Assembly (NCBI GenBank): GCA_030596125.1
Contig: JAUVKT010000003.1
Coordinates: forward strand, 108-64,107
Origin: Bacteroidales bacterium
GTDB taxonomy: Bacteria > Bacteroidota > Bacteroidia > Bacteroidales > VadinHA17
DNA: 64,000 bases
Reading direction: 5' to 3'
Position 1 is the first letter of the stretch. Every line of letters starts with the position of its first letter. A program made the position numbers and the translations under genes. This document shows positions 5,793 through 62,472 of this stretch, in pieces. Under the pieces are notes generated by a model, which did not search any database, was not told the DNA's origin, and saw only the letters and a program-made list of their open reading frames with translations.

Positions 5793-5793
5793 G

Positions 5794-18998: not shown

Positions 18999-19139
18999 TT
19001 TAGTATTTTTAGTACGTTTCAAGTCATTTAATTTGAATAATGGTCTCAATAGGAAAACATATATTACATTATAATGTTCGGTTGTTGGAAGATCCTGACA
19101 CAAGGAATGTAATAAATATGAAACTTATCCGGGCCAAAA

Positions 19140-19409: not shown

Positions 19410-19554
19410 ACCTTATGTTAACATTAAGGATTACAATATTGTATATTTTTACCCTGGCTGAGAATTTGTACTGACTTAATAAGCTTAATATAAGGTAATT
19501 AGTTTCTTTTCTGTAACTTAGATTTGTGATTTTTATTAATAATTTATCTTTATT

Positions 19555-26247: not shown

Positions 26248-26519
26248 ATATTCTTATTATTGTTTACTTGGATAAGTAGTAGGGTAGTTTATGAAACATA
26301 CCACTCGTAAAGTGATTTATTTTGCTTTTATATTTTTTTTTTAAGATCGTCTCTCATGTTCGTAATTATGCGAACAAAGATGATAATAATATTATAGATG
26401 GAATACTAAAACACTGAATAAAGTAAAAAACAGTTTTCTTCACCGAAGTTATAAGGGTAATTAATAACAAAGATATTTCTTCTGTATAGCTAGATTAGCA
26501 GTGATTTAATAATATGATA
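26248..26519 (+). repeat. Composite repeat copy 2 (modules A plus B)
   Basis: Direct repeat of 19140-19409 with scattered substitutions and small indels. Confidence 0.9.
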
Positions 26520-28176: not shown

Positions 28177-28270
28177 ATATTCTGATTATTGTTTATTTGA
28201 ATAAGTAGTAGGGTAGTTTATGAAACATAACACCCGTAAAGTGATTTATCTTGCTTTTTTATATTTTTTT
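28177..28270 (+). repeat. Repeat module A, third copy (no module B)
   Basis: Matches 19140-19235 and 26248-26340 by eye. It diverges exactly where module B starts in the other copies. Confidence 0.85.
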
Positions 28271-28405
28271 ATTATGTTTACTCTAGGTTCTGTTTTTTTG
28301 TTCTTATTTAACGATTCCAGCTTTGAGAACGAAAATATTTTTACAGGCAGAATTTGATATAAGAGTTCTTATTATTCTAGTGAACCAACTATATTAAGAG
28401 ATATT

Positions 28406-36068: not shown

Positions 36069-36891
36069 AATAATCGAAAGAAAATCGATAGTCCCCAACC
36101 TCCATCTGCTGGTGGTTCACGCCCCCGACGTAGTTGAAACGATACAACCGGGTCAGTTTGTAATTATTCATTGCGGTGAAGGATCGGAACGGATACCACT
36201 CACAGCAGCTGACTGGGACAGGGAAGAAGGGACCCTGTCAATTGTATTCATGGAGGTAGGAACCTCAACAGGAAAGCTGGCTATGTTGCAGCCAGGTGAT
36301 GAAATCCCGACAGTTGTAGGTCCGCTTGGAGTGCCTATAGAGATTGAAAAATTTGGTGTGGTTGTTTGTATTGGTGGTTGCTTTGGACTGGGTTCAATCT
36401 TTCCGGTTGTGAGGGCTTTGAAAGAAAAGGGGAATGAAGTGATAACTATGCTGGAAGGCAGAAGTAAAAATCTTTTATACTGGGAGGAAAAACTGTCAAA
36501 GTACAGTGATAAGGTAATAAAACTTACACGGGACGGCAGTTATGGCTATAAGGGTCATGTAAAAAAAGGATCTGAGTTACTGCGGGAACTGGGAATAAAA
36601 CCCGACAGGGTGATAGCTAACGGGTGTACTACACTTTCATACCTCGCTTCAAGGGACTATGCACACTTCGATGTACCTGTGATTGTTACCCTCAATACTA
36701 TTATGATTGATGGAACAGGCATGTGCGGTGTTTGTCGTTGTACTGTTGATGGCAAGATGAAATTTGCCTGCGTCGATGGTCCAAGCTTCGATGGCAGGCT
36801 TGTCGATTGGGAAGAGCTGGCTGCAAGAAGAAAACAGTACATATCAGAAGAAGCATTTCTTGTTCACCATTCAGGATGTGGAGGATTTTAA
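36061..36891 (+). CDS. NfnA-like subunit (PyrK/sulfide dehydrogenase beta family, FAD/NAD-binding, C-terminal 2Fe-2S)
   Basis: 276 aa with a ferredoxin-reductase fold and CGVCRCTVDGKMKFACVDGP. It overlaps the upstream gene by 8 nt. Confidence 0.75.
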   Translation: MFKIIERKSIVPNLHLLVVHAPDVVETIQPGQFVIIHCGEGSERIPLTAADWDREEGTLSIVFMEVGTSTGKLAMLQPGDEIPTVVGPLGVPIEIEKFGVVVCIGGCFGLGSIFPVVRALKEKGNEVITMLEGRSKNLLYWEEKLSKYSDKVIKLTRDGSYGYKGHVKKGSELLRELGIKPDRVIANGCTTLSYLASRDYAHFDVPVIVTLNTIMIDGTGMCGVCRCTVDGKMKFACVDGPSFDGRLVDWEELAARRKQYISEEAFLVHHSGCGGF

Positions 36892-39108: not shown

Positions 39109-39297
39109 AAAAATCGTTATGTGCCATAAATGTAAGAATATATCCCGATACTGAAAATCATAGGAGGGTTAATAGTGGGTATAAATCTGGTTGAGAAAAT
39201 GGTTGAATCGTGGAGTTTTGTAATCGTGTAATCGTTGAAATATTTTTAGGACGAGTCAATAAATGAAACAAACGATTTACCTTGCCATTTATATTTT

Positions 39298-39374
39298 GTC
39301 CCCGCCGAAGCGGGATCTTCGCTTCGCTTCGACTTTTGTCGTTTCCTGGTACCCGGCACCCGGTACCCGGTACC
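39298..39374. repeat. Short tandem repeat patch (CTTCGCT-type units, TTGTCGT, and GGTACCC/GGCACCC x4)
   Basis: Read directly: ...cttcgcttcgcttcgacttttgtcgtttcctggtacccggcacccggtacccggtacc. Confidence 0.85.
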
Positions 39375-39460
39375 TTTTCACTCCTGGTCCGTTAATTAAA
39401 CCCGATCTATCATGATTTTGAACAATAAATACTTTAACTTTATTGGAAAGTCATAAACAT

Positions 39461-40510
39461 ATGAATACAAAGATCAATCTTCTTCTGATCGAAGATTCTC
39501 CTGATGATGCAGAACTAATTCTGGATGAAATTAAGGGAGGGGGATTTGATCCGGTATGGACAAGGATCTGTACTGCTGAGGAGCTTAAGGAGATCTTGCC
39601 GGACCGTGAATGGGATATGGTTCTTTGTGATTACGTTTTGCCGGGTTTTTCAGGCCTTGAAGCCATAAAGATCATTAAGAGATCAAACCCTTTGGTTCCG
39701 GTAATTTTAGTTTCCGGACATGTGGGTGAAGATAAGGCAGTTGAAGCGATGCAATCAGGGGCATCCGATTATATACTTAAAGATAATCTTATCAGATTGG
39801 TACCTGCAATACAGAGGGAGATTTCCGAATACAAATCCCGGAAAATCGCATTTGACAGGGCTCAGAATCTGTCGAGACGCCTTGAGACGATAAGGGAGGA
39901 TGAGCGAAAAGAGATTGCAAAAAATCTTCATGATGATCTTGGACAAATTTTAACAGCCATAAAGATGGATCTTAGCTGGTTGGAGAAGAGAATTATTGTT
40001 AGTGATCCCCGGTTGAAAGATAAAATGACATCAATAAAGGAGCTTGTTGATCATTCTATTCAAACTGTTCAGAGATTGTCTTCAGACTTGCGACCCAGCA
40101 TACTGGATGACCTTGGCTTATTAGAGGCATTCAAATGGCAACTCGGTCAGTTTAGTGAACGTACAGGCCTTTCCCTGAAACTTGATCTCCCGGATAATGA
40201 TCCGGATCTGTTACCTGAACAGGCAGTTTCTGTCTTCAGAATTGTGCAGGAGGCACTGACCAATATTGCCAGGCATGCAGATGCCACTGAAGTTCAGGTA
40301 ACTATTCAAAAAAACAGAGAGGAATTTACGATCCTGATCAAAGATAATGGAAAAGGAATCTCAGACGAGCAGATCAATTCACCGGAATCATTAGGGATAA
40401 TGAGTATGAAAGAACGGGTGTTTCATTGGAACGGTAGAATCGTAATTTCAGGAAAAAAGGATAAAGGAACCAGCATTCAGATAAGATTTATGCTCCAAAA
40501 CAAAAGATAA
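39461..40510 (+). CDS. Receiver-domain-containing histidine kinase (REC plus HisKA_3 plus HATPase)
   Basis: LLIEDSPDD..LCDYVLPG receiver, H-box NLHDDLGQILTAIK and HATPase (NIARHA, DNGKGI). Confidence 0.8.
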   Translation: MNTKINLLLIEDSPDDAELILDEIKGGGFDPVWTRICTAEELKEILPDREWDMVLCDYVLPGFSGLEAIKIIKRSNPLVPVILVSGHVGEDKAVEAMQSGASDYILKDNLIRLVPAIQREISEYKSRKIAFDRAQNLSRRLETIREDERKEIAKNLHDDLGQILTAIKMDLSWLEKRIIVSDPRLKDKMTSIKELVDHSIQTVQRLSSDLRPSILDDLGLLEAFKWQLGQFSERTGLSLKLDLPDNDPDLLPEQAVSVFRIVQEALTNIARHADATEVQVTIQKNREEFTILIKDNGKGISDEQINSPESLGIMSMKERVFHWNGRIVISGKKDKGTSIQIRFMLQNKR

Positions 40511-40626
40511 AGCAAATATGTCAAAGGTCAGATGTCAAATGTCAAATGTGAAGAGCAAATATGTCAAAGGTCAGATGTCAAATGTCAAATGTGAAGAGTA
40601 AATATGTCAAATGTAGAATGTTGAGA
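40511..40626. repeat. Heptamer-based tandem array (ATGTCAA family), 43 bp super-unit x about 2.6
   Basis: The super-unit gcaaatatgtcaaaggtcagatgtcaaatgtcaaatgtgaaga recurs at 40512, 40555 and 40598. Confidence 0.9.
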
Positions 40627-40648
40627 GAAAAATTGTAGATTTAAGTGT

Positions 40649-41011
40649 ATGAAAAAACTAATAACAGAGAGATTTTTAGAGTTTGCAGCCATAATTGTTA
40701 AAATTGGAAAAAAACTTAACAAAACTTTTGAAGGCAGACATGTTTATGGTCAACTGTTTCGTTCCGGCACCTCTTCAGGTGCTAATTATGAAGAATCACA
40801 TTCTGCACAAAGTCCTCGGGATTTTATTCATAAAAGAGAAGTTGCATTAAAAGAACTTCGTGAATCTTTATTCTGGTTACGATTAATTGAGAAAGTAAAG
40901 TTTATACCTGAAAAAGACCCGGATTTAGTTTTTCTGTTAAAAGAAAATCAGGAGTTAATTAATATTATCGCAAAAGCAATTTCAACAATGAAGAAAAAAA
41001 ATAACATTTGA
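40649..41011 (+). CDS. Four-helix-bundle protein (23S rRNA intervening-sequence protein / Avd-like family)
   Basis: 120 aa. QLFRSGTSSGANYEESHSAQSPRDFIHKREVALKELRESLFWLRLI matches the family signature. Confidence 0.75.
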   Translation: MKKLITERFLEFAAIIVKIGKKLNKTFEGRHVYGQLFRSGTSSGANYEESHSAQSPRDFIHKREVALKELRESLFWLRLIEKVKFIPEKDPDLVFLLKENQELINIIAKAISTMKKKNNI

Positions 41012-41175
41012 CCTTTAACATTTGCCATCATACATTTGCCATTTGACATCATACATTTGCCATTTGCCATTTGCCATCATACATTTGACCTTTGACTTTT
41101 GACATCATACATTTGCCATTTGACCTTTGACATCATACATTTGCCATTTGCCATTTGACATCATACATTTGCCAT
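41005..41175. repeat. Heptamer tandem array (CATTTGC/CATTTGA/CCTTTGA/CATCATA), inverted relative to 40511-40626
   Basis: About 24 consecutive heptamers, read directly. The array starts inside the last codons of the four-helix-bundle ORF and ends 6 nt before the response regulator ATG. Confidence 0.9.
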
Positions 41176-41180
41176 ATATA

Positions 41181-41807
41181 ATGACTCGCTTTCTTATCAT
41201 AGACGATCATCCCATTGTGCGGAAAGGCCTTCGGCAGACACTCGAAGAACTACCCGGTGTAATTAAAATTACTGAAGCAGGTGATTCTCATGAAGGACTC
41301 AGGGTATTTCGGGATTGTGATTTTGATGTGGTATTGCTTGACATCAATCTTCCGGGAAAGAGCGGATTTGAAATACTTGCTGATATGAAATCAATGAAAC
41401 CGGACATACCGATATTGATCATCAGCATGTATCCTGAAGAGCAATATGCAATCAGGGCATTGAAGTCCGGAGCATCGGGTTACCTGACAAAAGCAATGGC
41501 AGCAGATGAGTTGCCTGTTGCAATACGAAAATTGACTTCAGGAGGCAAATATATCACCCCTTCTATTGCAGAAAAGATAGTTAATGGTTTTGATTCGCCA
41601 GGTCCAAAACATGATTTGCTTTCAAACAGGGAATTTGAGGTAATGATCTGTATTGCAAAAGGAAAGCCAATTAAGGAGATAGCATCCATGCTCTCAGTAA
41701 GTGAAAAGACAGTAAGCACTTATCGCAGCCGGATACTTGAAAAAATGGATATGCAATCAAATGCCGATATTGTTAAATATATGATCCGGGAGAATTTGAT
41801 CGATTGA
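41181..41807 (+). CDS. NarL/LuxR-family response regulator
   Basis: Receiver (LIIDDHPIVR, LLDINLPG) plus LuxR HTH (LSNREFEVMICIAKGKPIKEIASMLSVSEKTVSTYRSRI). Start trimmed out of the repeat array. Confidence 0.85.
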   Translation: MTRFLIIDDHPIVRKGLRQTLEELPGVIKITEAGDSHEGLRVFRDCDFDVVLLDINLPGKSGFEILADMKSMKPDIPILIISMYPEEQYAIRALKSGASGYLTKAMAADELPVAIRKLTSGGKYITPSIAEKIVNGFDSPGPKHDLLSNREFEVMICIAKGKPIKEIASMLSVSEKTVSTYRSRILEKMDMQSNADIVKYMIRENLID

Positions 41808-41827
41808 GTACTACCTGATTCGACCAC

Positions 41828-41896
41828 AACCTGTAAACCTGTAACCTGTAACCTGCAACTTGCAACTTGCAACTTGCAACTTGCAACTTGCAACTT
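41828..41896. repeat. Heptamer tandem array (CCTGTAA x3 then CTTGCAA x6)
   Basis: Read directly: aacctgtaaacctgtaacctgtaacctgcaacttgcaacttgcaacttgcaacttgcaacttgcaac. Confidence 0.9.
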
Positions 41897-42056
41897 TCTT
41901 CTTCTTCCTACTCCATACTTGTCAGGATTTCCCTACACCAAAATCAGGCTTCCCCGACAACCTATAGCACTCAATTCTTACATCCCGATTAAAAGGTATG
42001 GCATATCTTGCATAAGAAATTATTTCTCTGCAACAGAGTAGCGTAAACAATATTAT

Positions 42057-43991
42057 ATGAAACAGATGAAAAAACTAGTTAATATTTTAATGATTGAAGA
42101 TTTTCAGGATGATGCAGAACTGATAAGCTTTGAACTTGACAGGGGAAAAATTGATCATAAGATCACCAGGATCTGGGAAATTGATAAACTGGAAGATGAG
42201 CTTCAAAAACTGGTTTGGGACCTGGTCCTTTGTGACTATTACCTTCCGGGATTTAACGGGGCTGATGCGATAAGAATTATTCGGAAAAAAAGGCCCGATT
42301 TACCAATCATCCTTGTATCTGGAATGGTAGGGGACGAAAAGGCCGTTGAAGTTATGAAACTGGGAGCCAGGGATTATATTCTTAAAGACAATCTAAATCG
42401 TCTGATCCCTGCTGTTAAAAGAGAAGTTTATGATTTTAAACTACGGCAAACTCACTTAAATACAGAGAAAGCACTTGAGATACAGACTTCCCTTTCCCAG
42501 GTTTTCATTGATCATATTCCTGCCAGTGCCAGGCTTGTTGAGAAGAAAACTTATAGGGTATTATCAGCAAACAATTATGCACTGAAACATGGCACTATTC
42601 CGGGAAAGAAGTGCTATGAGTACAATCCTGGACAGAAAGAGCCATGCCCCAATTGTAAACTACATGATTTAGGAGAGGGGAACCGACACATTAATGCTGA
42701 GTCAAAAGAAAATGGAGATACCTATGATGAACATTGGGTAAATATAGATGAAAACCTGGCCCTTCATTACACCTTTAATATTACTGAAAGGAAACAATCT
42801 GAAAAAGAACTCATACAGGCGAAAGAGGAGGCAGAGGAGTCTGATCGCCTGAAATCAGCATTTCTTTCAAATATGTCACATGAGATCAGAACTCCAATGA
42901 ATGCTATTATTGGGTTTACCCAGATACTGAAAGATAATACGATAACAGATGATGAGCGGAATTCTTATATTGAGATTATTGAGCAGAGCGGAAACAACAT
43001 GCTGAATCTTCTTACAGATATTATAGAGTTTTCGCGTTTAGAGTCCGGAGACTATAAATTGAATAATGAAGAATTCCAGGTTGAAAAGTATATTGAGGAC
43101 CTGTTTGACCGGTTTAATAATGAATTGAAATTGAAAAACGAAAAGGATCTGCAACTCAGTCTTTCAAAACCTGAAGGCGATCAAATGGTTGTACTGAATC
43201 AGGATAAGAGTTGCCTTACCCAGATTTTGAACAGCCTGTTTCAAAACGCAAAGAAATTCACAAACCGGGGATCTATTGAGATTGGTTTCGAACTAATTGA
43301 AAAAGAGATTCGTTTTTATGTTAAGGACACCGGAATTGGTATTGAAAAGGAAAAACAGGAGATAATTTTTCAGCGATTCCGTCAGGTTGAAGAAGAAAAA
43401 ACAAGAACTTATAGTGGGGCAGGCCTTGGCCTGGCAATATCAAATAATATATTAGAGATCATGGGGAGTAAAATCTGGGTAGAATCTGAGTATGGAACCG
43501 GATCAACATTCTATTTTACACTTCCGGTTTACCGGATTGATAAAACTTCACATCCGGAGCATGCTGAATCTTCCGGAGAAGATCATGGTCAGGATACCCC
43601 TTTAATGTTAACCGGTAAAATAATCCTGATTGTTGAAGACGAAATTACAAATTACCTGGTTTTGGAAAATTTCCTGCAGAAATATAACCCCGAAATTCTT
43701 TGGGCCAAAAATGGTGAAACTGCCATAGATATTGTACATAGCAGGAAAGATATAGATCTGATTCTGATGGATATCCGGCTTCCTGGCATTGATGGAATGC
43801 AGGCCACCCGGACTATTCGCCAATTCAATACTAATATTCCTATAATTGCCCAGACAGCTTATGCATTACAGGAAGATATTGACAGAGCTTTCGAGTCTGG
43901 GTGTGATGATTTGATTACAAAGCCAATCAACTTTGAATTATTGATTGAAAAGATGCAAGTTTTTCTTTGCGTCTCTGCGTCTTTGCGGTAA
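42057..43991 (+). CDS. Hybrid sensor histidine kinase (REC, Cys-containing sensor region, HisKA, HATPase, REC)
   Basis: The N-terminal receiver is paralogous to that of 39461-40510. H-box SHEIRTPMNAIIGF, then GAGLGLAI and a C-terminal receiver (LIVEDE, LMDIRLPG). The last 9 codons lie in an octamer repeat. Confidence 0.8.
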   Translation: MKQMKKLVNILMIEDFQDDAELISFELDRGKIDHKITRIWEIDKLEDELQKLVWDLVLCDYYLPGFNGADAIRIIRKKRPDLPIILVSGMVGDEKAVEVMKLGARDYILKDNLNRLIPAVKREVYDFKLRQTHLNTEKALEIQTSLSQVFIDHIPASARLVEKKTYRVLSANNYALKHGTIPGKKCYEYNPGQKEPCPNCKLHDLGEGNRHINAESKENGDTYDEHWVNIDENLALHYTFNITERKQSEKELIQAKEEAEESDRLKSAFLSNMSHEIRTPMNAIIGFTQILKDNTITDDERNSYIEIIEQSGNNMLNLLTDIIEFSRLESGDYKLNNEEFQVEKYIEDLFDRFNNELKLKNEKDLQLSLSKPEGDQMVVLNQDKSCLTQILNSLFQNAKKFTNRGSIEIGFELIEKEIRFYVKDTGIGIEKEKQEIIFQRFRQVEEEKTRTYSGAGLGLAISNNILEIMGSKIWVESEYGTGSTFYFTLPVYRIDKTSHPEHAESSGEDHGQDTPLMLTGKIILIVEDEITNYLVLENFLQKYNPEILWAKNGETAIDIVHSRKDIDLILMDIRLPGIDGMQATRTIRQFNTNIPIIAQTAYALQEDIDRAFESGCDDLITKPINFELLIEKMQVFLCVSASLR

Positions 43992-44005
43992 AAAATTATA
44001 GACAT

Positions 44006-44683
44006 ATGAAAAATGCAGCAAAAACCAGGGAACAGCTTTTACACGAGTTAGAGAAATCAAATAATAGAATTGCTGAACTGGAAAAATCTGAAACCGGGCG
44101 CAAGCAGATGGAGAAAACGCTACAGGAAAGCGAACAAAGATTCCGAAAACTTTTAGAGAATGTGCCTACAGTTGCAGTGCAGGGATACAATTCCGATGGA
44201 GATATTCATTATTGGAATAAAGCAAATGAATCTATATATGGTTATACGGCAGATGAAGCTATCGGGAAAAATCTCATTGATCTGATCATTCCACCTGAAA
44301 TGAAGGAAGATGTGAAGAAAATAATCAGGAACGGTGCAAAAATTGGGGAAATGCCACCTGCTGCTGAAATAACCTTAATGCGCAAAGATGGAAAACCGGT
44401 CACTGTATTCACGAGTCATGCAATAGTACAACAATCCGGGAAAGAACCGGAATTGTTTTGTATTGATGTGGATTTGACCGAGCGCAAACAGGCGGAAGAA
44501 GAACTTGCACAATACCGTGAGCATCTTGAAGAACTTGTACTGGAACGAACTTCAGAACTGGAAGATAGAAATAAAAAACTTGAAAAATTCAATAAACTTT
44601 TTGTAGACAGGGAATTCAGGATTAAAGAGCTTAGGGACAGGGTTAAGGAACTGGAGAAAGCAGTAGGCAGTCCCGGAAAATAG
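44006..44683 (+). CDS. Stand-alone PAS sensor with conserved coiled-coil N- and C-caps (array member A)
   Basis: N-cap KTREQLLHELEKSNNRIAELEK, one PAS domain and C-cap ERKQAEEELAQYREHLEELVLERTSELEDRNKKLEKFNKLFVDREFRIKELRD. No output domain seen. Confidence 0.7.
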   Translation: MKNAAKTREQLLHELEKSNNRIAELEKSETGRKQMEKTLQESEQRFRKLLENVPTVAVQGYNSDGDIHYWNKANESIYGYTADEAIGKNLIDLIIPPEMKEDVKKIIRNGAKIGEMPPAAEITLMRKDGKPVTVFTSHAIVQQSGKEPELFCIDVDLTERKQAEEELAQYREHLEELVLERTSELEDRNKKLEKFNKLFVDREFRIKELRDRVKELEKAVGSPGK

Positions 44684-44753
44684 AAATCTCCGATTTCATA
44701 TTTTTCCGAGGATCCTCGAAAATTAATGCAAATCACAGATTTGCTAATTTTCG

Positions 44754-44796
44754 GGATAGGCAGTAGGCAGTAGGATAGGCATAAGCGATAAGCGCT
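44754..44796. repeat. Heptamer patch (GGCAGTA / GATAAGC units)
   Basis: Read directly: gataggcagtaggcagtaggataggcataagcgataagcgc. Confidence 0.8.
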
Positions 44797-44830
44797 TGAT
44801 TATAACATGAAAAGTATTGTTAGAAAAATA

Positions 44831-44937
44831 CATTTGCCATTTGCCATTTGCCATTTGACTTCATACATTTGACTTTTGACATCATACATTTGACATAAAA
44901 TTTGACCTTTGCCATTTGACATCATACATTTGACATA
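44831..44937. repeat. Heptamer tandem array (CATTTGC/CATTTGA/CATCATA family), third locus
   Basis: Same unit family and orientation as 41005-41175. Confidence 0.9.
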
Positions 44938-44957
44938 AAGAGCCTAAAGTTATTATA

Positions 44958-46370
44958 ATGGAAAACAGAGATAAAACCAAAACCAGGGAACAGCTTTTAA
45001 ACGATACAGTTCTTTTAAATGCTAAAATAGCCAGGCTGGAAAAAGATAAAGAGATATTTCAGGTAATTGCAGAAAACACAAGTGATAATATTGCAATTAC
45101 AAGTTTTGATCTGAAAGCTGAATATCTTTATGTTAGTCCTTCTGTAAAACATGTTCTTGACTATGATCCAAAGGATCTGGTTGGTAAATCATTTTTTGAT
45201 TTTATTCATCCTGATGATAAGAAAGTTCTGTTTCCATTATTAAAAAAGTATGTTAATCATAAAATAAAAAAGCTCCTATCCGGGAAAAATATTCCGGTTA
45301 GTAAAACAGTTGATTTTCGCTTTAGAAAGAAAAACGGAGACTGGTGTTTTATGCAAAGTGCTATAAATATAGTGGGAAATCAATTTATTTCAGTTACGAG
45401 AGACATCACCGAGCGTAAACGAGCGGAGAAAGCACTGAAGGAAAGTGAGAAACAGTTGCAAACTTTGATTGATGCTATGCCGGATTTTGTTTGTTTTAAG
45501 GATGGAGATGGATGCTGGCTCAAGGCTAATAATGCCTGCATCCGGATTTTCCAACTTGAGGATATAGACTATCGGGGAAAAACTGACTCTGAACTAGCTG
45601 AACTCAATAGCAATCTTCGGGGTACATTCCTTACGTGCAAAGAAACCGATACAAGAGCCTGGGAAGGGGAGGGTGTTTTTCACGGAGAAGAGACGGTTCC
45701 TGATCCAGATGGTTCAGTCCGGATTTACGATATGACCAAATTGGCTGTTCTTCAACCGGATGGTGAGCGTATTGGTCTTGTTGTTCTGGGACATGACATC
45801 ACCGAACGCAAACAGGCGGAGGAGATGCTGCAGGAAAGCGAGGATAGATTAAGACAAATTATTGATATTGTGCCACATATGATCTTCGCAAAAGACAGGA
45901 ACGGGCGTTTCATTATTGCAAATAAAGCCGTAGCTGACGGATGTGGAATAACTCCGGAAAAAATGGTTGGAAAGACACATCCGGAATTATTGGGAGCTAC
46001 TCCTGAACAATATGAGTCTTACCTGACAGATGACCGTGAAGTTATAGATAGTGGAAAATTGAAATTTATTCCCGAAGAAAATTATACTTTTCCTGATGGT
46101 CATAAGGTAATTATGGAAACAACCAAAATCCCGTTTACTTCCGCAGGAATACCTACTGTTCTGGGCGTATCAATCGATATCACCGACCGCAAACAGGCTG
46201 CAGAAGAACTTGCAAAACACCGTGAGAACCTGGAAGAACTTGTTCAGGAACGAACAAAAGAACTGGAAGATAAAAACATAAAACTTGAAAAATTCAATAA
46301 GCTTTTCGTTGACAGGGAATTCAGGATTAAGGAGCTTAGGGATAAGTTGAAGAAACTGGAGGGAAAGTAA
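44958..46370 (+). CDS. Stand-alone multi-PAS sensor with conserved caps (array member B)
   Basis: N-cap MENRDKTKTREQLL, three PAS-type segments each ending in DITERK, then the C-cap. No output domain. Confidence 0.7.
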   Translation: MENRDKTKTREQLLNDTVLLNAKIARLEKDKEIFQVIAENTSDNIAITSFDLKAEYLYVSPSVKHVLDYDPKDLVGKSFFDFIHPDDKKVLFPLLKKYVNHKIKKLLSGKNIPVSKTVDFRFRKKNGDWCFMQSAINIVGNQFISVTRDITERKRAEKALKESEKQLQTLIDAMPDFVCFKDGDGCWLKANNACIRIFQLEDIDYRGKTDSELAELNSNLRGTFLTCKETDTRAWEGEGVFHGEETVPDPDGSVRIYDMTKLAVLQPDGERIGLVVLGHDITERKQAEEMLQESEDRLRQIIDIVPHMIFAKDRNGRFIIANKAVADGCGITPEKMVGKTHPELLGATPEQYESYLTDDREVIDSGKLKFIPEENYTFPDGHKVIMETTKIPFTSAGIPTVLGVSIDITDRKQAAEELAKHRENLEELVQERTKELEDKNIKLEKFNKLFVDREFRIKELRDKLKKLEGK

Positions 46371-46424
46371 GAAGAAGTATGTAGTAGTAGGAAAGGCAAA
46401 AGGCATAGGGCGTAGGGGAAAAGG
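46371..46424. repeat. Degenerate heptamer patch after the C-cap
   Basis: Read directly: gaagaagtatgtagtagtaggaaaggcaaaaggcatagggcgtagggg. Confidence 0.7.
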
Positions 46425-46456
46425 AAGTGTCCCGGGTAAAATAGATAGATTAAAAA

Positions 46457-47107
46457 ATGATGGAAAACAGAGACAAGACCAAAACCAGGGAACAGCTCTT
46501 AAAAGAGTTGGAGAAAGCAGACAAAAGAATTGTCGAACTGGAAAAATTCAAAACCGAACGGCTGTTTACTGAACAGGCAGGCAAGCAGGTAGAGGAGGAA
46601 ATCCGAAAATTATCTAAAGTGGTGGAGACTACTTCGGAAGCAGTTGTGATAACAGATATGCAGGGAATGATAGAATATGTAAACCAGGGACTTCTTACGC
46701 TTGGCAGTTATGAAGATGATAGCTTAATAATTGGGAAATCGGTCTTTATGTTCAGCACTGCAGAAGGCGAAAATCAATTAAAAGAAAAAATTATTCCAAC
46801 AATATTGGCTAAAGGAAAATGGAGAGGAGAGGTTCCTGTTAAACGAAAAGATGGTTCTATCTTTCCTGCGGAGATGATTTGTTCGCATATATTGGATGAA
46901 GAAGGTAAACCAAAATCTTTATTATCTCAATATCAAGATATCACAAAGAGAAAGAAAGCAGAAGAAGAACTCCGGGAAAAAATGAATGAACTTGAAGCTT
47001 TTTATCGTGCTACTCTGGGTCGGGAGGGTCGTGTTATTGAGCTAAAACAAGAGGTAGATGGGTTGTTGGAACAACTTGGTGAAAATAAGAAATATACAAA
47101 TATTTAA
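46457..47107 (+). CDS. Stand-alone PAS sensor with N-cap and diverged C-cap (array member C)
   Basis: MENRDKTKTREQLLKELEKADKRIVELEK, one PAS domain and the tail ELEAFYRATLGREGRVIELKQEVDGLL. Confidence 0.7.
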   Translation: MMENRDKTKTREQLLKELEKADKRIVELEKFKTERLFTEQAGKQVEEEIRKLSKVVETTSEAVVITDMQGMIEYVNQGLLTLGSYEDDSLIIGKSVFMFSTAEGENQLKEKIIPTILAKGKWRGEVPVKRKDGSIFPAEMICSHILDEEGKPKSLLSQYQDITKRKKAEEELREKMNELEAFYRATLGREGRVIELKQEVDGLLEQLGENKKYTNI

Positions 47108-47120
47108 TAGAGGGGAGATC

Positions 47121-48242
47121 ATGTTTCAAAAAATAGAATTTTTTGATGGGCAGAAGCCGGAAGGATGGCAACCATTTCTGAAGGAGTTGAGTAAAGACAA
47201 TGCTAAAGGCATTCTCCTTTTTGTTGGGGAAGAGACACCGTTTGATTACAAACAGCTGCAACCTCTGCTAAAAAAGATGGATATTAAAGTAATTGGAGCC
47301 GTTTTCCCTGAAGTGATCTATAACGGTTCGTTATATAAACAGGGAGTAGTGGGTTGCGCTTTCCGGTCCCCGGTATTTTTTGAAGTGATTAAAGATCTGA
47401 GCAAATTTAAAGCCAGTTTTTCAGAAGATTTTATTTCAGAAAATACCCGCACACTTATGATCTTTACTGATGCATATACAGATAATATTCCGCTGTTTAT
47501 CGAAACTTTATATGAAAAGAATTTAAAAGAAACAGCGTTTATCGGAGGTGTTGCAGGCAGTATAAAAAGTATTAATCAACTATCTTTGTTTACTTGCGAT
47601 GACTTATTCGCAGGAGGGGCTATCATCGCTGCTGTTGAGGACTATATGTCGGTGGGAATAAATCATGGTTTGCAACCTGTTTCTGAACCGGCTATTGCCA
47701 GTAGTGTGGATAGAAATATATTAAAATCAATTAATTGGGAACCGTCTTTTGATTATTATAAAAGGATCGTTGAGAAAGATGATGGTATCAGGTTAACAAC
47801 AGATAGTTTACTTGAAGTTGCTAAATCGTATCCTCTTGGAATGCTGAAATATGATGGTGAGATCATTTTGCGTGTTCCTGTAAGTGTTGGCGAAGAAAGA
47901 AGTCTTTTATTTGCCAGTGAAATACCTGAAAACTCTGTATTGGTGGTTACAAAAGCCTACCATGACAAATTAATAGTAGCCGCAGGTATAGCCACAGACC
48001 AGGCTAGAATTGCTTTTGAGAGCAAAAAGAATATATCCCCTGGCAAAGTTTTAATCGTAGACTGTCTTGCCAGAGCAATGTTTTTAGAAGACAGATTGAA
48101 TGATGAGTTAAAGATAATTGCAGACAAAGCAGGAGGTGACGTTTTAACATTTGGATTTTTAAGTTTAGGAGAAATTGCTTCTACCGGGGATAAATATATT
48201 GAACTGTACAATAAGACCATAGTTGTTGGTATGGGGGAATAA
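47121..48242 (+). CDS. FIST-domain sensory protein (FIST_N plus FIST_C)
   Basis: 374 aa. The C-terminus FGFLSLGEIASTGDKYIELYNKTIVVG is typical of FIST_C. Start trimmed to MFQKIEFF, 13 nt after the preceding stop. Confidence 0.65.
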   Translation: MFQKIEFFDGQKPEGWQPFLKELSKDNAKGILLFVGEETPFDYKQLQPLLKKMDIKVIGAVFPEVIYNGSLYKQGVVGCAFRSPVFFEVIKDLSKFKASFSEDFISENTRTLMIFTDAYTDNIPLFIETLYEKNLKETAFIGGVAGSIKSINQLSLFTCDDLFAGGAIIAAVEDYMSVGINHGLQPVSEPAIASSVDRNILKSINWEPSFDYYKRIVEKDDGIRLTTDSLLEVAKSYPLGMLKYDGEIILRVPVSVGEERSLLFASEIPENSVLVVTKAYHDKLIVAAGIATDQARIAFESKKNISPGKVLIVDCLARAMFLEDRLNDELKIIADKAGGDVLTFGFLSLGEIASTGDKYIELYNKTIVVGMGE

Positions 48243-48281
48243 ATTATAAACCGGACTGACCATTAAAAAAATATATTGAAC

Positions 48282-49493
48282 ATGAAACAAATGAGATCTT
48301 CTCTTCAGAACCTCAGTATTTCTTACGAGATTGCGCTTGCAATTGGTAACAGTTTGAACCTGTCAGAAATGCTTCATGATGTTATTCACAAGATGGTGCA
48401 TAAAACGAATGCCTATCATGGAATTATCTGGGTCAACAATGGAGAGAAACTCCAACCGGTAGCAAGTGCGGGAATTAATATAAAAGATGTGCAGGCACAA
48501 GGTGAAAGAATTGGTTGCCGGGATGTTTTCAATCAAATAATAAAAAGAGAGCAATTTGTACTTAGATGCAAAGATGACAAAGATTTTTTGCAGTACTGTA
48601 CTGTCCTGTCAGAAAAAGAAGAATCAGTATTGATTGTGCCTGTAGCCAATGTGGCGATTATTTATCTGGTCTATTCCCGCAGGGATATCGCAGATAAACC
48701 TTTAGCAAATATGATTACCGGTCTTTCTAAGAAGTTAGGCATTGCTATAGAAGCTTGTATGGATCATAAGAACATTATTAATGAAGTGCAGGTGAGAGTG
48801 AAAGCAGAAAAGGAACTAACGAAGAAAACAGAGCAACTGATTTCCGGAGAGAAGGAACTTCAAAGGCTTTATGGAGAATCTGAACAAGCCAGAAAATCAC
48901 TGCTTAGCATCCTGGAAGATGTTGAGCAAAAAGAGGAGGCTCTGCGGGAAAAAGAGATCTATACCAGGGCGATTATTGAACAGTCTCCAATCAGTATCCA
49001 GATTTTCAATAAGAATGGTTTAACTATAGATACAAACAGTGCCTGGGGAGAATTGTGGCAGCTTCCATCTGACGAATTGATCGGGAAATATAATGTTCTC
49101 GAGGATGAATATGCACGGGAGATTGGGGCGTTAGATAATATTGAGAAAGCCTTTAAAGGCGAGACTTCTTTTCCATTCGAGATAGAATACGATCCTGTAA
49201 AAAGTAGAAATCCTGGTCGAAAGCGATATATAAAATGTGTTGTTTTTCCTATAAAAAATAAAAATGGAGAAATGAACAGAGTCGTATTAATGCATGAAGA
49301 TATCACCGAACGTAAACAGGCTGCAGAAGAACTTGCAAAACACCGTGAGAACCTGGAAGAACTTGTGCAGGAACGAACAAAAGAACTGGAAGATAAAAAC
49401 AAGAAACTTGAAAAATTTAATAAGCTTTTCGTTGACAGGGAGTTCAGGATTAAGGAGCTTAGGGATAAGCTGAAGGAGGTGGAGGGAAAGTAA
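48282..49493 (+). CDS. GAF-like plus PAS sensor with conserved C-cap, no N-cap (array member E)
   Basis: N-terminal GAF-like region, coiled coil with SLLSILEDVEQKEEAL, one PAS domain, then a C-cap nearly identical to that of member B. Confidence 0.7.
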   Translation: MKQMRSSLQNLSISYEIALAIGNSLNLSEMLHDVIHKMVHKTNAYHGIIWVNNGEKLQPVASAGINIKDVQAQGERIGCRDVFNQIIKREQFVLRCKDDKDFLQYCTVLSEKEESVLIVPVANVAIIYLVYSRRDIADKPLANMITGLSKKLGIAIEACMDHKNIINEVQVRVKAEKELTKKTEQLISGEKELQRLYGESEQARKSLLSILEDVEQKEEALREKEIYTRAIIEQSPISIQIFNKNGLTIDTNSAWGELWQLPSDELIGKYNVLEDEYAREIGALDNIEKAFKGETSFPFEIEYDPVKSRNPGRKRYIKCVVFPIKNKNGEMNRVVLMHEDITERKQAAEELAKHRENLEELVQERTKELEDKNKKLEKFNKLFVDREFRIKELRDKLKEVEGK

Positions 49494-49537
49494 GAGGAAG
49501 TATGTAGTATGTAGTATGTAGTATGTAGTAGGAAGCC
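49494..49537. repeat. Heptamer tandem array (AGTATGT x4)
   Basis: Read directly: gaggaagtatgtagtatgtagtatgtagtatgtagtaggaagcc. Confidence 0.9.
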
Positions 49538-49570
49538 AAATGTCCGGGTAAATAGTTAGACTAAAAAAAG

Positions 49571-52078
49571 ATGGAAAACAGAGACAAGACCAAAACCAGG
49601 GAACAGCTCTTAAAAGAGTTAGAGAAAGCAAATAAAAGAGTTGCTGAACTGGAAAAATTTGAAAACGAGAGTAAGCAAGCGGAGGTGGCGTTGAAGGAGA
49701 GCGAGGAGAAATACAGAACTCTCGTCGAGTATTCCTCTGATTTAATCTTTCAAATTGATAATAATGGGATTGTTTTATCAGTAAACCAGGCCGCGGCTGG
49801 AGTCCTGGGTAGAAAACCTAAGGAGATATCGGGGAAAAATATTTCTGAATTATTTCCAGAGGAAATTAACAAGAGCTATAAGCGGGACTTGAAGAAAGTT
49901 TTTGAAACAGGTGAAGAATCAATCAAAGAAGGGACCATACCTGTCGGAGAACATACAATGTGGATCAGTACATCCCTTAATCCAAAAAGAGACAGTGCCG
50001 GTAAAATAATGTGGGTATTTGGCGTAAGCAGGGACATCACTGAACGCAAGCGGGCAGAGGAAGCTTTAGAAGAAAGTAATGAAAATTTTCGACAGGTTGT
50101 GTCTAGTATTACAACTATTATTTGGAAAGCCGAGGTTGGAAAGAACGGAGCTTTTGAAAACACTTATATTTCACCCGTTGTAGATGAATTGCTGGAATTA
50201 CCACCAGGAACAATAAAAAATGACTGGGAAATATTTTTCAGCTATATAAAACCCGAATATCTGGAACAGGTAAATAATGCTTTCAGAGAAGCAATTAAAT
50301 CGCCGGGTAAAGTAATTAATTGCGAATACGAAGTATTAAAAGAAAATGGACGAACAGCCTGGTTTCATTCAAAAGGCAGAATTTTTAGAAAAAATGAGAA
50401 ATTGTATGTTTTCGGCTCTACGAATGATATCACCGAGCGAAAAGTAGCAGAGGTGGCGCTTCAGGAAAGTGAGAAAAAATATAGAGACCTGTTTGAAAAA
50501 TCAGAAGATGCTTCTTTAGTAATTCATAATGGGAAATTTATTGATTGTAATCAGGCTACAATTAATATGCTGGGTTATAATAGTAAAGATGAGCTTTTAA
50601 TGATGCACCCTTCAGAATTGTCACCGGAAAAACAGGCGGACGGAAAATTATCATTTACGAAAGCAAATGAAATGATGAAAATAGCTTTTAGAAATGGCAG
50701 TCATCGCTTCGAATGGATTCATAAGAGATTTAATGGAGATGGTTTCCCTGTGGAGGTGTTGTTAACCGCTATTTCTACTGATGAAGAAAATCAGATTATT
50801 CACGCGGTTCTGCGGGATATCACTAAACGCAATCAGACTGAGGAATTGCTTCAGAAAAGCGAAGAAAAATATAGATTATTAGCAGATAATTCAATGGATG
50901 CGATCTGGCAGATGGATAAGAAATTAGTCTTTACATATATTAGTCCGTCCGTAAATAATATTTTGGGATACACAGTTGATGAGTGGGTTGGAACCAGATT
51001 ATCTCAACATACCAGTACAAAAGAATTTTTTAAAATGTCAAGAAAAGCATTATACGCAATTAAAAATTTTAAGAAATTTAAACACCTCACCTTTGAAGCT
51101 GTGATGTTAAAAAAAGATGGAAATGAAGTTCCTATTGAAATCACCGGAAGATTGTTATTGAATAAGAAAGGGTTGCCAATTGGATTACAGGGAACTACCC
51201 GTGATATTACTGAACGCAAGAAGGCTGATAAGGAACTTAAAAAGCACCGTCAACATCTGGAAGAAACTGTAAAACAGAGAACAGGAGAGATTGAAAACAA
51301 ATCAAAAAAACTGGAAGAATCACAAAACGCACTAACTTTTTTGCTTGAGGATGTGAATGATGCAAGATTTGAACTTGAGAAAACAAATCTTCAGTTGCAA
51401 ATAGCCAATAAGGAGATGGAGTCTTTTACATACTCCGTATCCCATGACCTGAGAGCTCCTCTCAGAGCCATCCTGGGTTTTTCAAATAAATTTACAGAGA
51501 TCTATGGAGGAAAAGTGGACGAAGAGGGAACACGCCTGTTAAATGTGATAAATGCGAACACAAAAAAAATGGGTATGCTTATTGATGATCTGCTTGCTTT
51601 TTCAAGGATGGGAAGATCTGATATGCGCAAGGTAAAAGTTGACATCAAAGGATTAGCACATGAAACCTGGAACGAGCAGAAAGATCAGTATGCAGGCAGA
51701 AATATTAAACTGACTATCAAGGATATGCCTGTTGCAAAAGGTGACCGGAATATGCTCAGGCAGGTCCTGTTCAACCTGCTGTATAATGCAGCAAAATTTT
51801 CAAAATACAAGGAAGTATCAATAATTGAAGTGGGAGCCAAAACTAGAGATTCGGAAACCATTTATTATGTAAAAGATAATGGAGCAGGCTTTGATATGAG
51901 ATATAAGGATAAGTTATTCCAGGTATTTCAGCGTTTGCATAGCGACCGTGAGTTTGAGGGAACCGGTGTTGGACTGGCCATTGTAAAGAAAGTTATTGAT
52001 ATGCACGGCGGAAAGGTCCGGGCAGAATCAGAACCTGACAAAGAGACAACTATTTACTTCTCGCTTCCTATAGCCTGA
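49571..52078 (+). CDS. Multi-PAS sensor histidine kinase with the same N-cap (array member F)
   Basis: N-cap MENRDKTKTREQLLKELEKANKRVAELEK, four to five PAS segments, signalling helix (HRQHLEETVKQRTGEIE...LTFLLEDVNDA), H-box SHDLRAPLRAILGF and HATPase (GTGVGLAIVKK). Confidence 0.85.
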   Translation: MENRDKTKTREQLLKELEKANKRVAELEKFENESKQAEVALKESEEKYRTLVEYSSDLIFQIDNNGIVLSVNQAAAGVLGRKPKEISGKNISELFPEEINKSYKRDLKKVFETGEESIKEGTIPVGEHTMWISTSLNPKRDSAGKIMWVFGVSRDITERKRAEEALEESNENFRQVVSSITTIIWKAEVGKNGAFENTYISPVVDELLELPPGTIKNDWEIFFSYIKPEYLEQVNNAFREAIKSPGKVINCEYEVLKENGRTAWFHSKGRIFRKNEKLYVFGSTNDITERKVAEVALQESEKKYRDLFEKSEDASLVIHNGKFIDCNQATINMLGYNSKDELLMMHPSELSPEKQADGKLSFTKANEMMKIAFRNGSHRFEWIHKRFNGDGFPVEVLLTAISTDEENQIIHAVLRDITKRNQTEELLQKSEEKYRLLADNSMDAIWQMDKKLVFTYISPSVNNILGYTVDEWVGTRLSQHTSTKEFFKMSRKALYAIKNFKKFKHLTFEAVMLKKDGNEVPIEITGRLLLNKKGLPIGLQGTTRDITERKKADKELKKHRQHLEETVKQRTGEIENKSKKLEESQNALTFLLEDVNDARFELEKTNLQLQIANKEMESFTYSVSHDLRAPLRAILGFSNKFTEIYGGKVDEEGTRLLNVINANTKKMGMLIDDLLAFSRMGRSDMRKVKVDIKGLAHETWNEQKDQYAGRNIKLTIKDMPVAKGDRNMLRQVLFNLLYNAAKFSKYKEVSIIEVGAKTRDSETIYYVKDNGAGFDMRYKDKLFQVFQRLHSDREFEGTGVGLAIVKKVIDMHGGKVRAESEPDKETTIYFSLPIA

Positions 52079-52250
52079 TTAATTCATAAGTTTTTCGTCA
52101 TGAGAAGTCAAAGTACACAGAATAAAGGGAAGCGCAGATTTGAGACTCACAGATATAGCCATAGCTATATTGAGAATCAAAAATCGAGCATTGCCTTTAG
52201 TCACAGTAATTTGACTTCACAATAGATCAATTTGTGAATTATTCAGGCTA
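52074..52250 (+). mobile_element. MITE-like palindromic element, copy 1 (~177 bp)
   Basis: Terminal inverted repeats CCTGATTAATTCATAAGTT / AATTTGTGAATTATTCAGG match at 16 of 19 positions. The whole element is an imperfect palindrome. A near-identical copy lies at 59471-59668. Confidence 0.6.
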
Positions 52251-52263
52251 AGAATCTCACAAA

Positions 52264-59470: not shown

Positions 59471-59668
59471 CCTGATTAATTCATAAGTTTTTCGTCATGA
59501 GAAGTCAAAGTACACAGAATAAAGGTAAGCGCAGATTTGAGACTCACAAATATAGCCGTAGTTATATTGAGAATCAAAAATCGAGCATTGCCTTTAGTCA
59601 CAGTAATTTGACTTCGTAATACCTGCCTGCCGGCGAGGCAGGGATCAATTTGTGAACTATTCAGGTTA
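59471..59668 (+). mobile_element. MITE-like palindromic element, copy 2 (~198 bp, with a 21 bp GC-rich hairpin insertion)
   Basis: Same sequence and orientation as 52074-52250. The extra CCTGCCTGCCGGCGAGGCAGG lies near the right end. Confidence 0.6.
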
Positions 59669-59825
59669 ATTGAATAAACGTATAATCTGTTTAAATATTT
59701 TTGTTTTTCATCAAATATTTTCTTCTATTATCTCTCTTTATTTTTCAGAAATAGGTATAAATAGGTATTTAATTTACCAGCTTATTGCTATTTTTGTGCA
59801 AAAATTAAACCAAATCATTACAAAA

Positions 59826-61877: not shown

Positions 61878-61928
61878 AGAATAGCCCTCCTTCGCTCTCC
61901 ACTTCGTTTCAAGCTTCGGAAGGGCAAA

Positions 61929-61998
61929 GCAGTCGGCAGTCGGCAGTCGGCAGTCGGCAGTCGGCAGTCGGCAGTCGGCAGTCGGCAGTCAGCAGTCC
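61929..61998. repeat. Heptamer tandem array (GCAGTCG x8 plus 2 variant units)
   Basis: Read directly. Confidence 0.95.
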
Positions 61999-62010
61999 TC
62001 AATCTGATAA

Positions 62011-62397
62011 TCAAAAATTTGGATTAAAAAATCGCTGAATAGCTCCCATTATATACTCACGCCATCCTTCTGAAATATTCGCAAAATCCTTATCCGGGAT
62101 ATTTGAATGTTCCACAGTAACCTGGGTAGAACCGAAATCTCTTAGCAGGTATATTGTTACAACAGACTTCTCCTCCTGTTCTCCAAAATACCACTCCTGT
62201 ACCAGTTTTTTATTCTCTACTGCCTCAATTATATTACCGGTAATATCACCATCCCACATAGAAAATTCCGATCCTGCATCTGTAGTCATTACAGCCGGAG
62301 AACCCGACCAGAGTTCTATTGTAACAGGGTTTGTCAGTGCAGAATATATATCAGTTATATCAGCATTAATAATGAATGTCTTTTTAAATGTTTTCAT
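62011..62397 (-). CDS. SRPBCC-superfamily protein (AHSA1/START-like)
   Basis: About 128 aa with FIINADITDIYSALTNP..ELWSG and VTVEHSNIP..EGWREYI. Start at the ATG at 62397. Confidence 0.6.
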   Translation of the reverse strand: MKTFKKTFIINADITDIYSALTNPVTIELWSGSPAVMTTDAGSEFSMWDGDITGNIIEAVENKKLVQEWYFGEQEEKSVVTIYLLRDFGSTQVTVEHSNIPDKDFANISEGWREYIMGAIQRFFNPNF

Positions 62398-62425
62398 CTT
62401 ATAATGATTTAGCAATTATCCACCC

Positions 62426-62472
62426 TCTTTAGTGCTTAGTCTTTACCCTTAGCCTTTTGTCGTTTGTCGTTT
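62426..62472. repeat. Degenerate heptamer patch (TTAGTGC.., TTGTCGT x2)
   Basis: Read directly: ctttagtgcttagtctttacccttagccttttgtcgtttgtcgtttta. Confidence 0.75.

Follow-up and report, generated by a model that had tools for sequence, protein, structure and literature searches.

Tandem arrays of seven-base units in bacterial spacers have been known since the short tandemly repeated repetitive (STRR) sequences of cyanobacteria, and they remain unexplained. Described examples include the Xanthomonas GGGAATC arrays, which are 89-93% intergenic, lie ~28 nt from the upstream open reading frame (ORF) and form 70-75 inverted pairs per genome (PMC4692102), the GGGGAYT arrays of Nostoc (PMC4692102), the heptanucleotide elements in spacers of Geobacter metallireducens (PMC2700814), and the TAACTGA and accompanying heptamer arrays of Beggiatoaceae, Cyanobacteria and five Bacteroidetes (MacGregor 2015, PMC4679880). 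A passage of PMC4692102 that cites Mrazek 2007 describes heptamers as over-represented in bacterial spacers. Here we evaluate a stretch of 64,000 nucleotides (the window) from a Bacteroidales assembly (GCA_030596125.1, contig JAUVKT010000003.1), in which heptamer arrays lie in the spacers of an island of signalling genes and two of them, at 40511-40626 and 41005-41175, are the inverted arms of a cassette that holds a four-helix-bundle gene of the PF05635 family. We interpret the set as heptameric long simple-sequence repeats with unit-wise turnover, three of the arrays being parts of PF05635 cassettes and the solo arrays being by-products, and we place the probability of this reading at roughly 0.6.

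For the cassette, the closest described systems are the intervening sequences of 23S ribosomal RNA (rRNA). In Coxiella, a PF05635-family ORF sits inside a 28-bp stem, 2-3 tandem GACAGAT units lie 5' of the ORF in strain-variable number, and RNase III cuts the intervening sequence at the first GACAGAT repeat (PMC4990558, Warrier 2016). Our cassette resembles the intervening sequences of Coxiella and Leptospira (PMC4990558), which have been proposed to be mobile or selfish, in carrying the same protein family within a terminal-inverted-repeat stem and in the tandem, strain-variable heptamers 5' of the ORF. It has the PF05635/TIGR02436 ORF and the pairing inverted flanks of an ORF-bearing intervening sequence but not the location in a 23S rRNA helix, since it lies between the genes of a two-component operon rather than in rRNA helix 45, and its arms run to 13-24 units as against a 28-bp stem with 2-3 repeats in Coxiella. 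An Rfam search of the window revealed no rRNA and no other known RNA family, and our literature search found nothing linking PF05635/TIGR02436 to heptamer repeats beyond the rRNA intervening sequences.

The cassette sits between the kinase gene and the LuxR-type regulator gene of the operon, on the plus strand. Its left arm, of ATGTCAA type (40511-40626), begins at the base immediately past the kinase stop codon; Tandem Repeats Finder calls it as ATGTCAA x13.6 at 40518-40614, with a higher-order 43-bp unit repeated 2.3 times at 98% identity. The 120-aa ORF follows at 40649-41011, and its stop codon is held in the first unit of the right arm (41005-41175), a mixture of CATTTGA, CATTTGC and CATCATA that the finder calls as CATTTGN/CATCATA x22.6 at 41004-41175 with a higher-order 28-bp unit repeated 5.1 times, and that ends 5 nt ahead of the regulator ATG (41181). 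The two arms are inverted around the gene with 73-88% complementarity, and the predicted fold of the 700-nt stretch pairs both arms around the ORF at -177.8 kcal/mol, against -137 +/- 6.6 kcal/mol for shuffles (z = -6.2). The protein belongs to the '23S rRNA intervening sequence protein' four-helix-bundle family by Pfam PF05635 (E = 1e-12) and NCBIfam TIGR02436 (E = 6.6e-21), has its nearest solved structure in PDB 2RLD from Bacteroides thetaiotaomicron (5 chains, E = 4e-14), and is encoded by the sole PF05635 gene in the window. The cassette matches other genomes over the gene and arms alone and not over the genes next to it, which fits a unit placed at different sites. A preliminary description, made from the letters alone, had listed these arrays and had overlooked that two of them are inverted arms and that a third (44831-44937, below) is probably an orphan arm.

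The same architecture recurs well outside this genome. At 58 loci encoding relatives of the cassette protein, drawn from Bacteroidales, Ignavibacteria, Verrucomicrobia, Planctomycetes, Deltaproteobacteria and others, we counted 59 period-7 arrays against 0-9 for other periods, such that period 7 alone was enriched. In the usual layout an A-rich array stands 30-90 nt 5' of the gene, and the array that reverse-complements it follows 10-80 nt 3'. Complementary flanks (z > 2) were found in 45 of the 49 loci having both flanks; flanks taken from one and the same locus had a median score of 40, those paired across loci 21.5, and flanks compared in direct orientation 18. The heptamer unit varies among lineages while arm complementarity is retained. 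Inverted heptamer pairs also occur with no four-helix-bundle gene between them, on a Planctomycetes contig (L056, 10151-10183 / 10248-10276) and a Deltaproteobacteria contig (L063, 6243-6278 / 6365-6397). Many close homologues of the cassette protein lie on contigs of 0.5-3 kb and many of the 58 loci terminate at the gene, which fits flanking arrays breaking short-read assemblies.

The intact cassette is wedged between the kinase gene and its regulator gene, and from its architecture we propose that the inverted arms pair into a long imperfect hairpin around the four-helix-bundle gene. The arm duplex in the operon transcript would be a likely RNase III substrate by analogy with the 23S rRNA intervening sequences, for which excision by this enzyme is established (PMC4990558), and cleavage would either excise the cassette from the kinase-regulator mRNA or insulate it from that mRNA.

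A syntenic relative (L198/L199) shows what can become of such a cassette. Gene order there is as in the window (kinase, regulator, hybrid kinase, PAS genes), with the kinase protein 64% identical, and the kinase-regulator gap of 486 bp holds a left arm of (ATGTCAA/ATGTCAG)x4.6, a leader and a truncated cassette ORF whose first ~27 codons are joined directly to right-arm units through a ~280-bp internal deletion. Because the cassette with its internal deletion occupies the same site, a cassette was therefore present there in the common ancestor, and, judging from the sequence, the cassette in this one lineage has decayed to a gene-less array pair. Ahead of the regulator gene the relative also carries an AAATGTT array and a 9-base array (11773-11855 of L199, CACTTTCTT / CACTTTAGT, x8, reverse complement ACTAAAGTG), and after the regulator gene the window's AACCTGT/AACTTGC has its counterpart in arrays of TCTCATC and CTCAGTCGC; the place of the arrays has therefore been kept at these orthologous spacers and the units have not.

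A second position in the island tells a similar story. The array at 44831-44937 (plus strand, CATTTGC/CATTTGA/CATCATA, called by Tandem Repeats Finder as x15.6 at 44830-44936) is of the right-arm type, shares exact 26-28-nt blocks with the cassette's right arm and stops 20 nt ahead of the next ATG, and it stands without a gene or a left arm. The spacer that contains it (44684-44957) is conserved in L199, where the corresponding CATTTGA array has ~6 units. Just 5' of it, the plus-strand stretch 44803-44830 may be what is left of another four-helix-bundle gene's 3' end, as in alignments the 30-nt segment conserved in L199 resembles cassette-gene 3' ends, that of a related locus (L003) most closely. 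The 44831-44937 array is thus probably the orphan arm of a second, decayed cassette, as these alignments suggest.

The position of the CATTTGN/CATCATA arrays raises an alternative, in which they are promoter stacks that drive the downstream gene and restore expression behind an inserted cassette. TTTG-N17-21-TAnnTTTG, which we take to be the Bacteroidota-type promoter pattern, occurs seven times in the two arrays and once elsewhere in the 64 kb against 2.5 expected, each array is directed at a start codon 5-20 nt off, and each ends in a 12/12 match to TTGACA-N16/18-TATAAT (41155-41182 and 44930-44959). The seven matches, however, are not independent because one higher-order unit is repeated, and the TATAAT boxes overlap the ATG of the next gene, such that the start site would therefore lie inside that gene. 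The left arm, moreover, has the same motif in the antisense direction, and the right arms of related cassettes use other units in which the motif was not seen by eye. We consider promoter stacks improbable.

Beyond the arms, the window holds a series of further arrays, which we identified with Tandem Repeats Finder supplemented by a strict run scan and a period-7 autocorrelation; assignment to spacer or gene rests on a crude ORF-based gene map. The island itself begins with a receiver-HisKA_3 kinase and the 120-aa ORF; these are followed by a LuxR-type response regulator, then a hybrid kinase, four genes that are PAS-only together with one FIST gene, and lastly a PAS kinase. Upstream of the first kinase, in a divergent spacer and with no strand assigned, lies GGTACCC x3.9 (39348-39374, Tandem Repeats Finder), preceded by (CTTCG)x3 at 39317-39331. 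On the plus strand, a solo array of (AACCTGT)x4.4 followed by (AACTTGC)x6.7 (41828-41896) begins 20 nt past the regulator stop codon and changes stepwise along its length from AACCTGT through AACCTGC to AACTTGC. The hybrid kinase gene (42057-43991) ends in an octamer variant, TCTTTGCG x3 at 43964-43987 on the plus strand, which lies within its final 9 codons and encodes the tail ...FLCVSASLR before the stop. Two GCAGTMG units (44660-44673, plus strand, recognized by junction alignment) encode the C-terminal tail (AVGS...) of the PAS gene ending at 44683, and the spacer after it holds short solo arrays of GGCAGTA x2.6 (44757-44774) and then AAGCGAT x2, together spanning 44757-44794 on the plus strand. 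A degenerate junction array, AGTATGT x1 plus AAGGCAN-like units (46376-46424, plus strand), starts 5 nt past a PAS gene stop codon, and its paralogous counterpart, AGTATGT x4.6 (49499-49530, plus strand), stands at a later junction. Two arrays outside the range covered by the preliminary description have no strand assigned: GCAGTCG x9.9 (61929-61997), in the gap between two convergent genes, and TTTGTCG x2.4 (62456-62472), upstream of the minus-strand gene 62011-62415. Eight of the window's arrays have at least 2.4 copies each, with a maximum of 22.6.

Every array on the preliminary list was called by Tandem Repeats Finder except the tract at 46371-46424, which falls below the finder's threshold and has a period-7 autocorrelation of 0.46, and the set as such is real. 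Its statement that each array uses its own unit was not quite right, because the 40511-40626 array, when reverse-complemented, gives the units found at both 41005-41175 and 44831-44937; it does hold that almost every array differs.

Period 7 is the sole enriched tandem period. The strict run scan of the window found 5 runs for period 7 and 0 for periods 4-6 and 8-12, and shuffled spacers yielded 0-1 arrays. Across 547 kb (the window and the 58 related loci) there were 68 period-7 arrays, whereas periods 5, 10 and 11 had none and periods 6, 8, 9 and 12 had 1-9; 56 of the 68 fall in the 12.5% of bases that are intergenic. The 547 kb hold 83 different unit families. In the window, the proposed intergenic placement was borne out on the crude gene map, with every array in a spacer or touching a gene end, none within a gene body, and arrays 0-20 nt downstream of stop codons or 5-20 nt upstream of start codons. 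The finer claim that arrays sit between terminators and starts is true of one spacer only, which has a terminator-like hairpin at 44728-44744. Clustering in the signalling island is likewise real, as all 7 spacers at 39.1-49.6 kb carry an array, compared with 2 among the window's 22 other spacers (p = 2e-5, Fisher's test). Two stretches that the crude map treats as spacers, 19104-20131 and 36069-36763, look coding, with a start uncalled or a frame broken, and an OmpR-like receiver starts near 19.63 kb (MSIRILVVDDE...), so that they are not true spacers. We also considered a compositionally foreign island and dropped the idea, the island's G+C of 0.375-0.38 being within the window range of 0.37-0.42.

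Set against the described heptamer systems, the arrays share with those of STRR, Xanthomonas, Nostoc and Geobacter a 7-base tandem structure, a location that is ~90% intergenic and often near the upstream gene end, some convergent inverted pairs, variation in length and sequence among close relatives, and no proven function. They differ in having AT-rich to mixed units with a separate unit for nearly every array, while in those genomes a single unit or a small number of units predominates, in an uncultured Bacteroidota-like cold-seep host, and in a very high local density (11 arrays; 7 consecutive spacers). The preliminary label 'STRR-like' therefore suits the class (7-base tandem, intergenic, variable copy number) and not strict STRR, from which units and host differ; none of CCCCAGT, TTGGTCA and CAACAGT, which we take to be the strict STRR units of heterocystous cyanobacteria, is found among the window's arrays. 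Contingency loci, the phase-variable simple-sequence repeats of host-adapted pathogens, have units of 1-5 bases. The window's arrays are like them in changing unit number, presumably by slippage, and in a period that is not a multiple of 3, and unlike them in having 7-base units outside gene bodies, where no on/off frame switch is possible. CRISPR was rejected as an identity for the arrays because the units are contiguous without spacers, as were repetitive extragenic palindromes and miniature inverted-repeat transposable elements, for which inverted partners are absent except for the cassette arms.

The TAACTGA system (PMC4679880) is alike in its intergenic heptamers in Bacteroidetes, in several heptamers per spacer, in close relatives that have no arrays at the same junction, and in contigs that end within repeats. 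It differs in unit, as a search for tandem TAACTGA (TAACTGATAACTGA, up to 2 mismatches) gave no match in the window, and that paper, whose text contains neither 'four helix' nor '23S rRNA', makes no connection between its arrays and PF05635 genes. The preliminary suggestion that nothing of this kind had been described for Bacteroidota fails because the heptamer class is already in print with five Bacteroidetes included (PMC4679880), and the array set is a further instance of a known repeat class and not a discovery on its own.

To follow the arrays through time we turned to populations, orthologues and paralogues. The locus was found in cold-seep and marine-sediment metagenomes of several studies, with runs X1-X7 coming from cold-seep sites, and some contig joints rest on short matches. 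Among 12 distinct indels across ~23 kb, 7 were in or at arrays, which make up ~3% of the sequence, and 5 were elsewhere; five of the indels are exactly 7 or 14 bases within arrays. These comprise +7 (+CCTGGTA at 39344, X6) and -14 (at 39348, X2) in the GGTACCC array, -14 at 44913 in the 44831-44937 array (X7), one extra unit (+GGCGTAA at 46408, X7) in the 46376-46424 array and one additional unit (+TTTGTCG at 62455, X2) in the TTTGTCG array, so that the length variation between strains that had been anticipated is present. Larger changes may occur as well: in variant contigs (GTTAGTC)n replaces the end of the GCAGTCG array at 61929-61997, a possible whole-array replacement, and in one X7 contig (AACCCGG)x3 may replace AACCTGT/AACTTGC, a weak case with 20 matching letters on one side. 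Word depth in the metagenomes spikes at arrays, reaching ~1067 in the GCAGTCG array versus ~18 in its flanks, which may hint at many dispersed loci in the genome.

Orthologous and paralogous comparisons revealed the same pattern at greater distance. In two independent European Nucleotide Archive assemblies of the orthologous locus (L059 and L060), the kinase 3' end is 89.6% identical to the window and the cassette ORF 94.5%, and identity falls to 68.5% in the left arm, whose alignment has 48 gap columns because one 43-bp unit is missing; for the L059 right arm it is 81%, and the higher-order unit there is another one (~49 bp, read by eye). Within the window, the gene ends flanking the paralogous junctions at 46371 and 49494 are ~90% identical by eye, while the heptamer tract has been remodelled, with AGTATGT x1 plus AAGGCAN units at the former and AGTATGT x4.6 at the latter. 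Array units also reach into proteins: they encode the C-terminal tails of two window genes, and the predicted effect on such tails is borne out by the PAS protein that ends ...EKAVGSPGK in the window and ...EKAVGSRQ in L199, both by way of GCAGTAG units, the L199 gene ending in (GCAGTAG)x3.4 (tail AVGSRQ) at the same position as the window's GCAGTMG units. Fusion of neighbouring PAS genes by read-through upon a change of unit number was considered and rejected, as the AGTATGT and AACCTGT arrays hold stop codons in all three frames (read by eye).

As a mechanism, we propose that whole units and blocks of units are gained and lost by slipped-strand mispairing or unequal exchange and that a mutated unit may spread along its array; an array thus keeps its place while its sequence and length change faster than the genes beside it. 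That the arrays are instead artefacts of short-read metagenome assembly is hardly credible. Contigs of other samples do break within the long arrays, yet independent assemblies from several studies (L059, L060, L199 and Logan contigs) contain the same arrays with the same flanks, and short arrays are spanned intact, such that the doubt is confined to the copy numbers of long arrays.

Placement and persistence suggest a further alternative, namely that a protein reading in a 7-base register binds the arrays in cis, as platforms in DNA or mRNA, and that its binding would set translation, mRNA stability or the coupling of neighbouring cistrons. We regard this as distinctly unlikely. The candidate readers are the four-helix-bundle pentamer and an RNA binder of cold-shock or S1 type, such as has been proposed to act on TAACTGA repeats. 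The positions of arrays shortly past stops (0-20 nt) or before starts (5-20 nt) do resemble what is seen in Xanthomonas and Beggiatoaceae, no period other than 7 is used, and the orthologous spacers of L199 retain arrays despite differing units. That nearly every array differs in unit nevertheless argues against a single sequence-specific reader, copy number drifts among strains, and the closest relatives' FIST islands are entirely without arrays.

In our reading the solo arrays would be orphans, seeds or side products of the repeat dynamics, whose effects, among them extra C-terminal tails and changed spacing, would be incidental and not a required function. The window's solo arrays proved to have no inverted partners, and a clade-specific profile detected no further four-helix-bundle genes or obvious relics beside them. 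Gene 62011-62415, which has arrays on both sides, was rejected as a hairpin cassette since the arrays there are without inverted partners. A search of the metagenome collection with (GCAGTMG)x3, whose unit is the one repeated at 44660, 44757 and 61929, recovered at least 120 loci (653 kb) that, given a median G+C of 61% among those listed, come mostly from unrelated organisms. At least 11 of these loci have the array on both strands, and at least 7 of those are gene-less inverted pairs 50-110 nt apart. Among the matches listed, all 5 detectable PF05635 ORFs (with Pfam confirmation) are at arrays: 2 lie between inverted arms, 2 abut an array and 1 is at 529 nt. The one unit thus builds solo arrays, hairpins that hold a gene and hairpins that do not, and most of the matches listed are solo. 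A search for (AACTTGC)x3 in viral contigs gave no match, and (AGTATGT)x3 gave 12 loci, several in giant-virus bins and 0 with a four-helix-bundle gene.

Self-folding is predicted for some solo arrays, owing to a palindrome or near-palindrome of 6 bases in the unit. This applies to the GCAGUCG array (61920-62005; plus strand only, -37.7 kcal/mol, z = -7), to the AACUUGC array (41820-41900; z = -4.7), with its TTGCAA palindrome, and to the GGUACCC array (39296-39380), whose unit contains GGTACC; a perfect 6-base palindrome is present in GGTACCC and AACTTGC only, GCAGTCG pairing via G-U. Palindromic units were rejected as a general rule, as 2-3 of ~8 unit families against ~1 expected on a rough estimate is not significant. 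Binding sites for the NarL/LuxR-type regulator of the neighbouring gene were likewise set aside, since by eye the units do not fit TACYYMT, which we take to be the NarL heptamer consensus, and no tie between such regulators and the heptamer arrays of other genomes is known.

The alternative that competes most directly with our account of the solo arrays is that all of them are neutral products of polymerase slippage, formed de novo through a built-in preference for 7 bases and unrelated to cassettes, which merely carry or insert into similar arrays. We think this possible, though we doubt it. It is favoured by the sheer number of unit families, by the gradient from AACCTGT to AACTTGC in a single array, by the lack of a partner array or gene at most GCAGTMG loci listed, and by the FIST-kinase islands of other relatives (76-80% protein identity), which are tightly joined with 3-nt gene junctions and among which the closest (L061 and L064) are wholly free of period-7 arrays; that slippage favours heptamers has also been proposed already, in the part of PMC4692102 that cites Mrazek 2007. 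Against it, generic slippage does not predict the near-absence of periods 6 and 8, the same GCAGTMG unit forms cassette arms elsewhere, L199 directly shows cassette decay leaving arrays, and the 44831 array has higher-order blocks in common with a cassette arm.

Several observations also weigh against reading the set as turning-over repeats of which three belong to cassettes and the others are by-products. Most of the window's arrays, and ~100 of the 120 GCAGTMG loci listed, have no partner array or four-helix-bundle gene nearby. The arms of 13-24 units contrast with 2-5 in published intervening sequences. The persistence of arrays at orthologous spacers over ~36% protein divergence, as in L199, could instead mean selection for function, and slippage by itself does not account for the expansion of no period but 7. 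The stretch 38.5-52.5 kb was not covered in any of three metatranscriptomes from the same study or sample, and the copy numbers of long arrays in the assembly are uncertain because short-read contigs of other samples end within them.

Turning to the genes around the arrays, the nearest relatives of the window genes are found in Bacteroidales, Rikenellaceae and Tenuifilaceae assemblies, and exact-protein look-ups for the cassette protein, the regulator and the PAS protein returned no record. The PAS-only genes in the row at 44006-52078 have near-identical coiled-coil ends, with ~60 aa identical between the C-termini of 44958-46370 and 48276-49493, and relatives at 76-80% identity have FIST followed after 3 nt by a single PAS or hybrid kinase. 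The window lineage seems, on this comparison, to have multiplied or split its sensor modules at heptamer-bearing junctions. As to the preliminary suggestion that unit gain or loss could change promoter spacing, the GGTACCC array, which is polymorphic, is placed within a divergent promoter region. Two other repeat types were seen in the window. One is a ~185-bp dispersed element present twice (52079-52263 and 59476-59669; 96% identity over 146 nt and 93% over 27 nt), both copies upstream of a plus-strand gene and matching no Rfam family, whose words reach 12-14x the flanking depth in metagenomes, so that it is multi-copy. The other is a ~270-bp repeat (~91% identity) in three long spacers (19139-19409, 26248-26519 and 28177-28271), with a fragment at 5769-5812.

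What the locus adds to the known heptamer class is a series, within one 10-kb stretch and its orthologues, that runs from an intact gene-bearing hairpin through a decaying hairpin and an orphan arm to solo arrays, together with direct population evidence of whole-unit change. At a practical level, assemblies of short reads break at such arrays, and gene models can acquire tails from them, whether spurious or real. A broader proposal, which we hold as rather unlikely, is that heptamer arrays and PF05635 genes form one system, in which the arrays would be cis elements, in RNA or DNA, for these proteins in a 7-base register, and gene-bearing hairpins, gene-less hairpins and solo arrays would be stages of a life cycle. 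Bearing on it are the inverted heptamer arrays that flank this protein family across phyla, the decay of a cassette into arrays at an orthologous site, and a solo-array unit that is a cassette arm elsewhere. If true, this proposal would explain why period 7 only is over-represented in many bacterial spacers, the cyanobacterial STRR included. The series at this locus makes the question of why seven, and what for, experimentally approachable.

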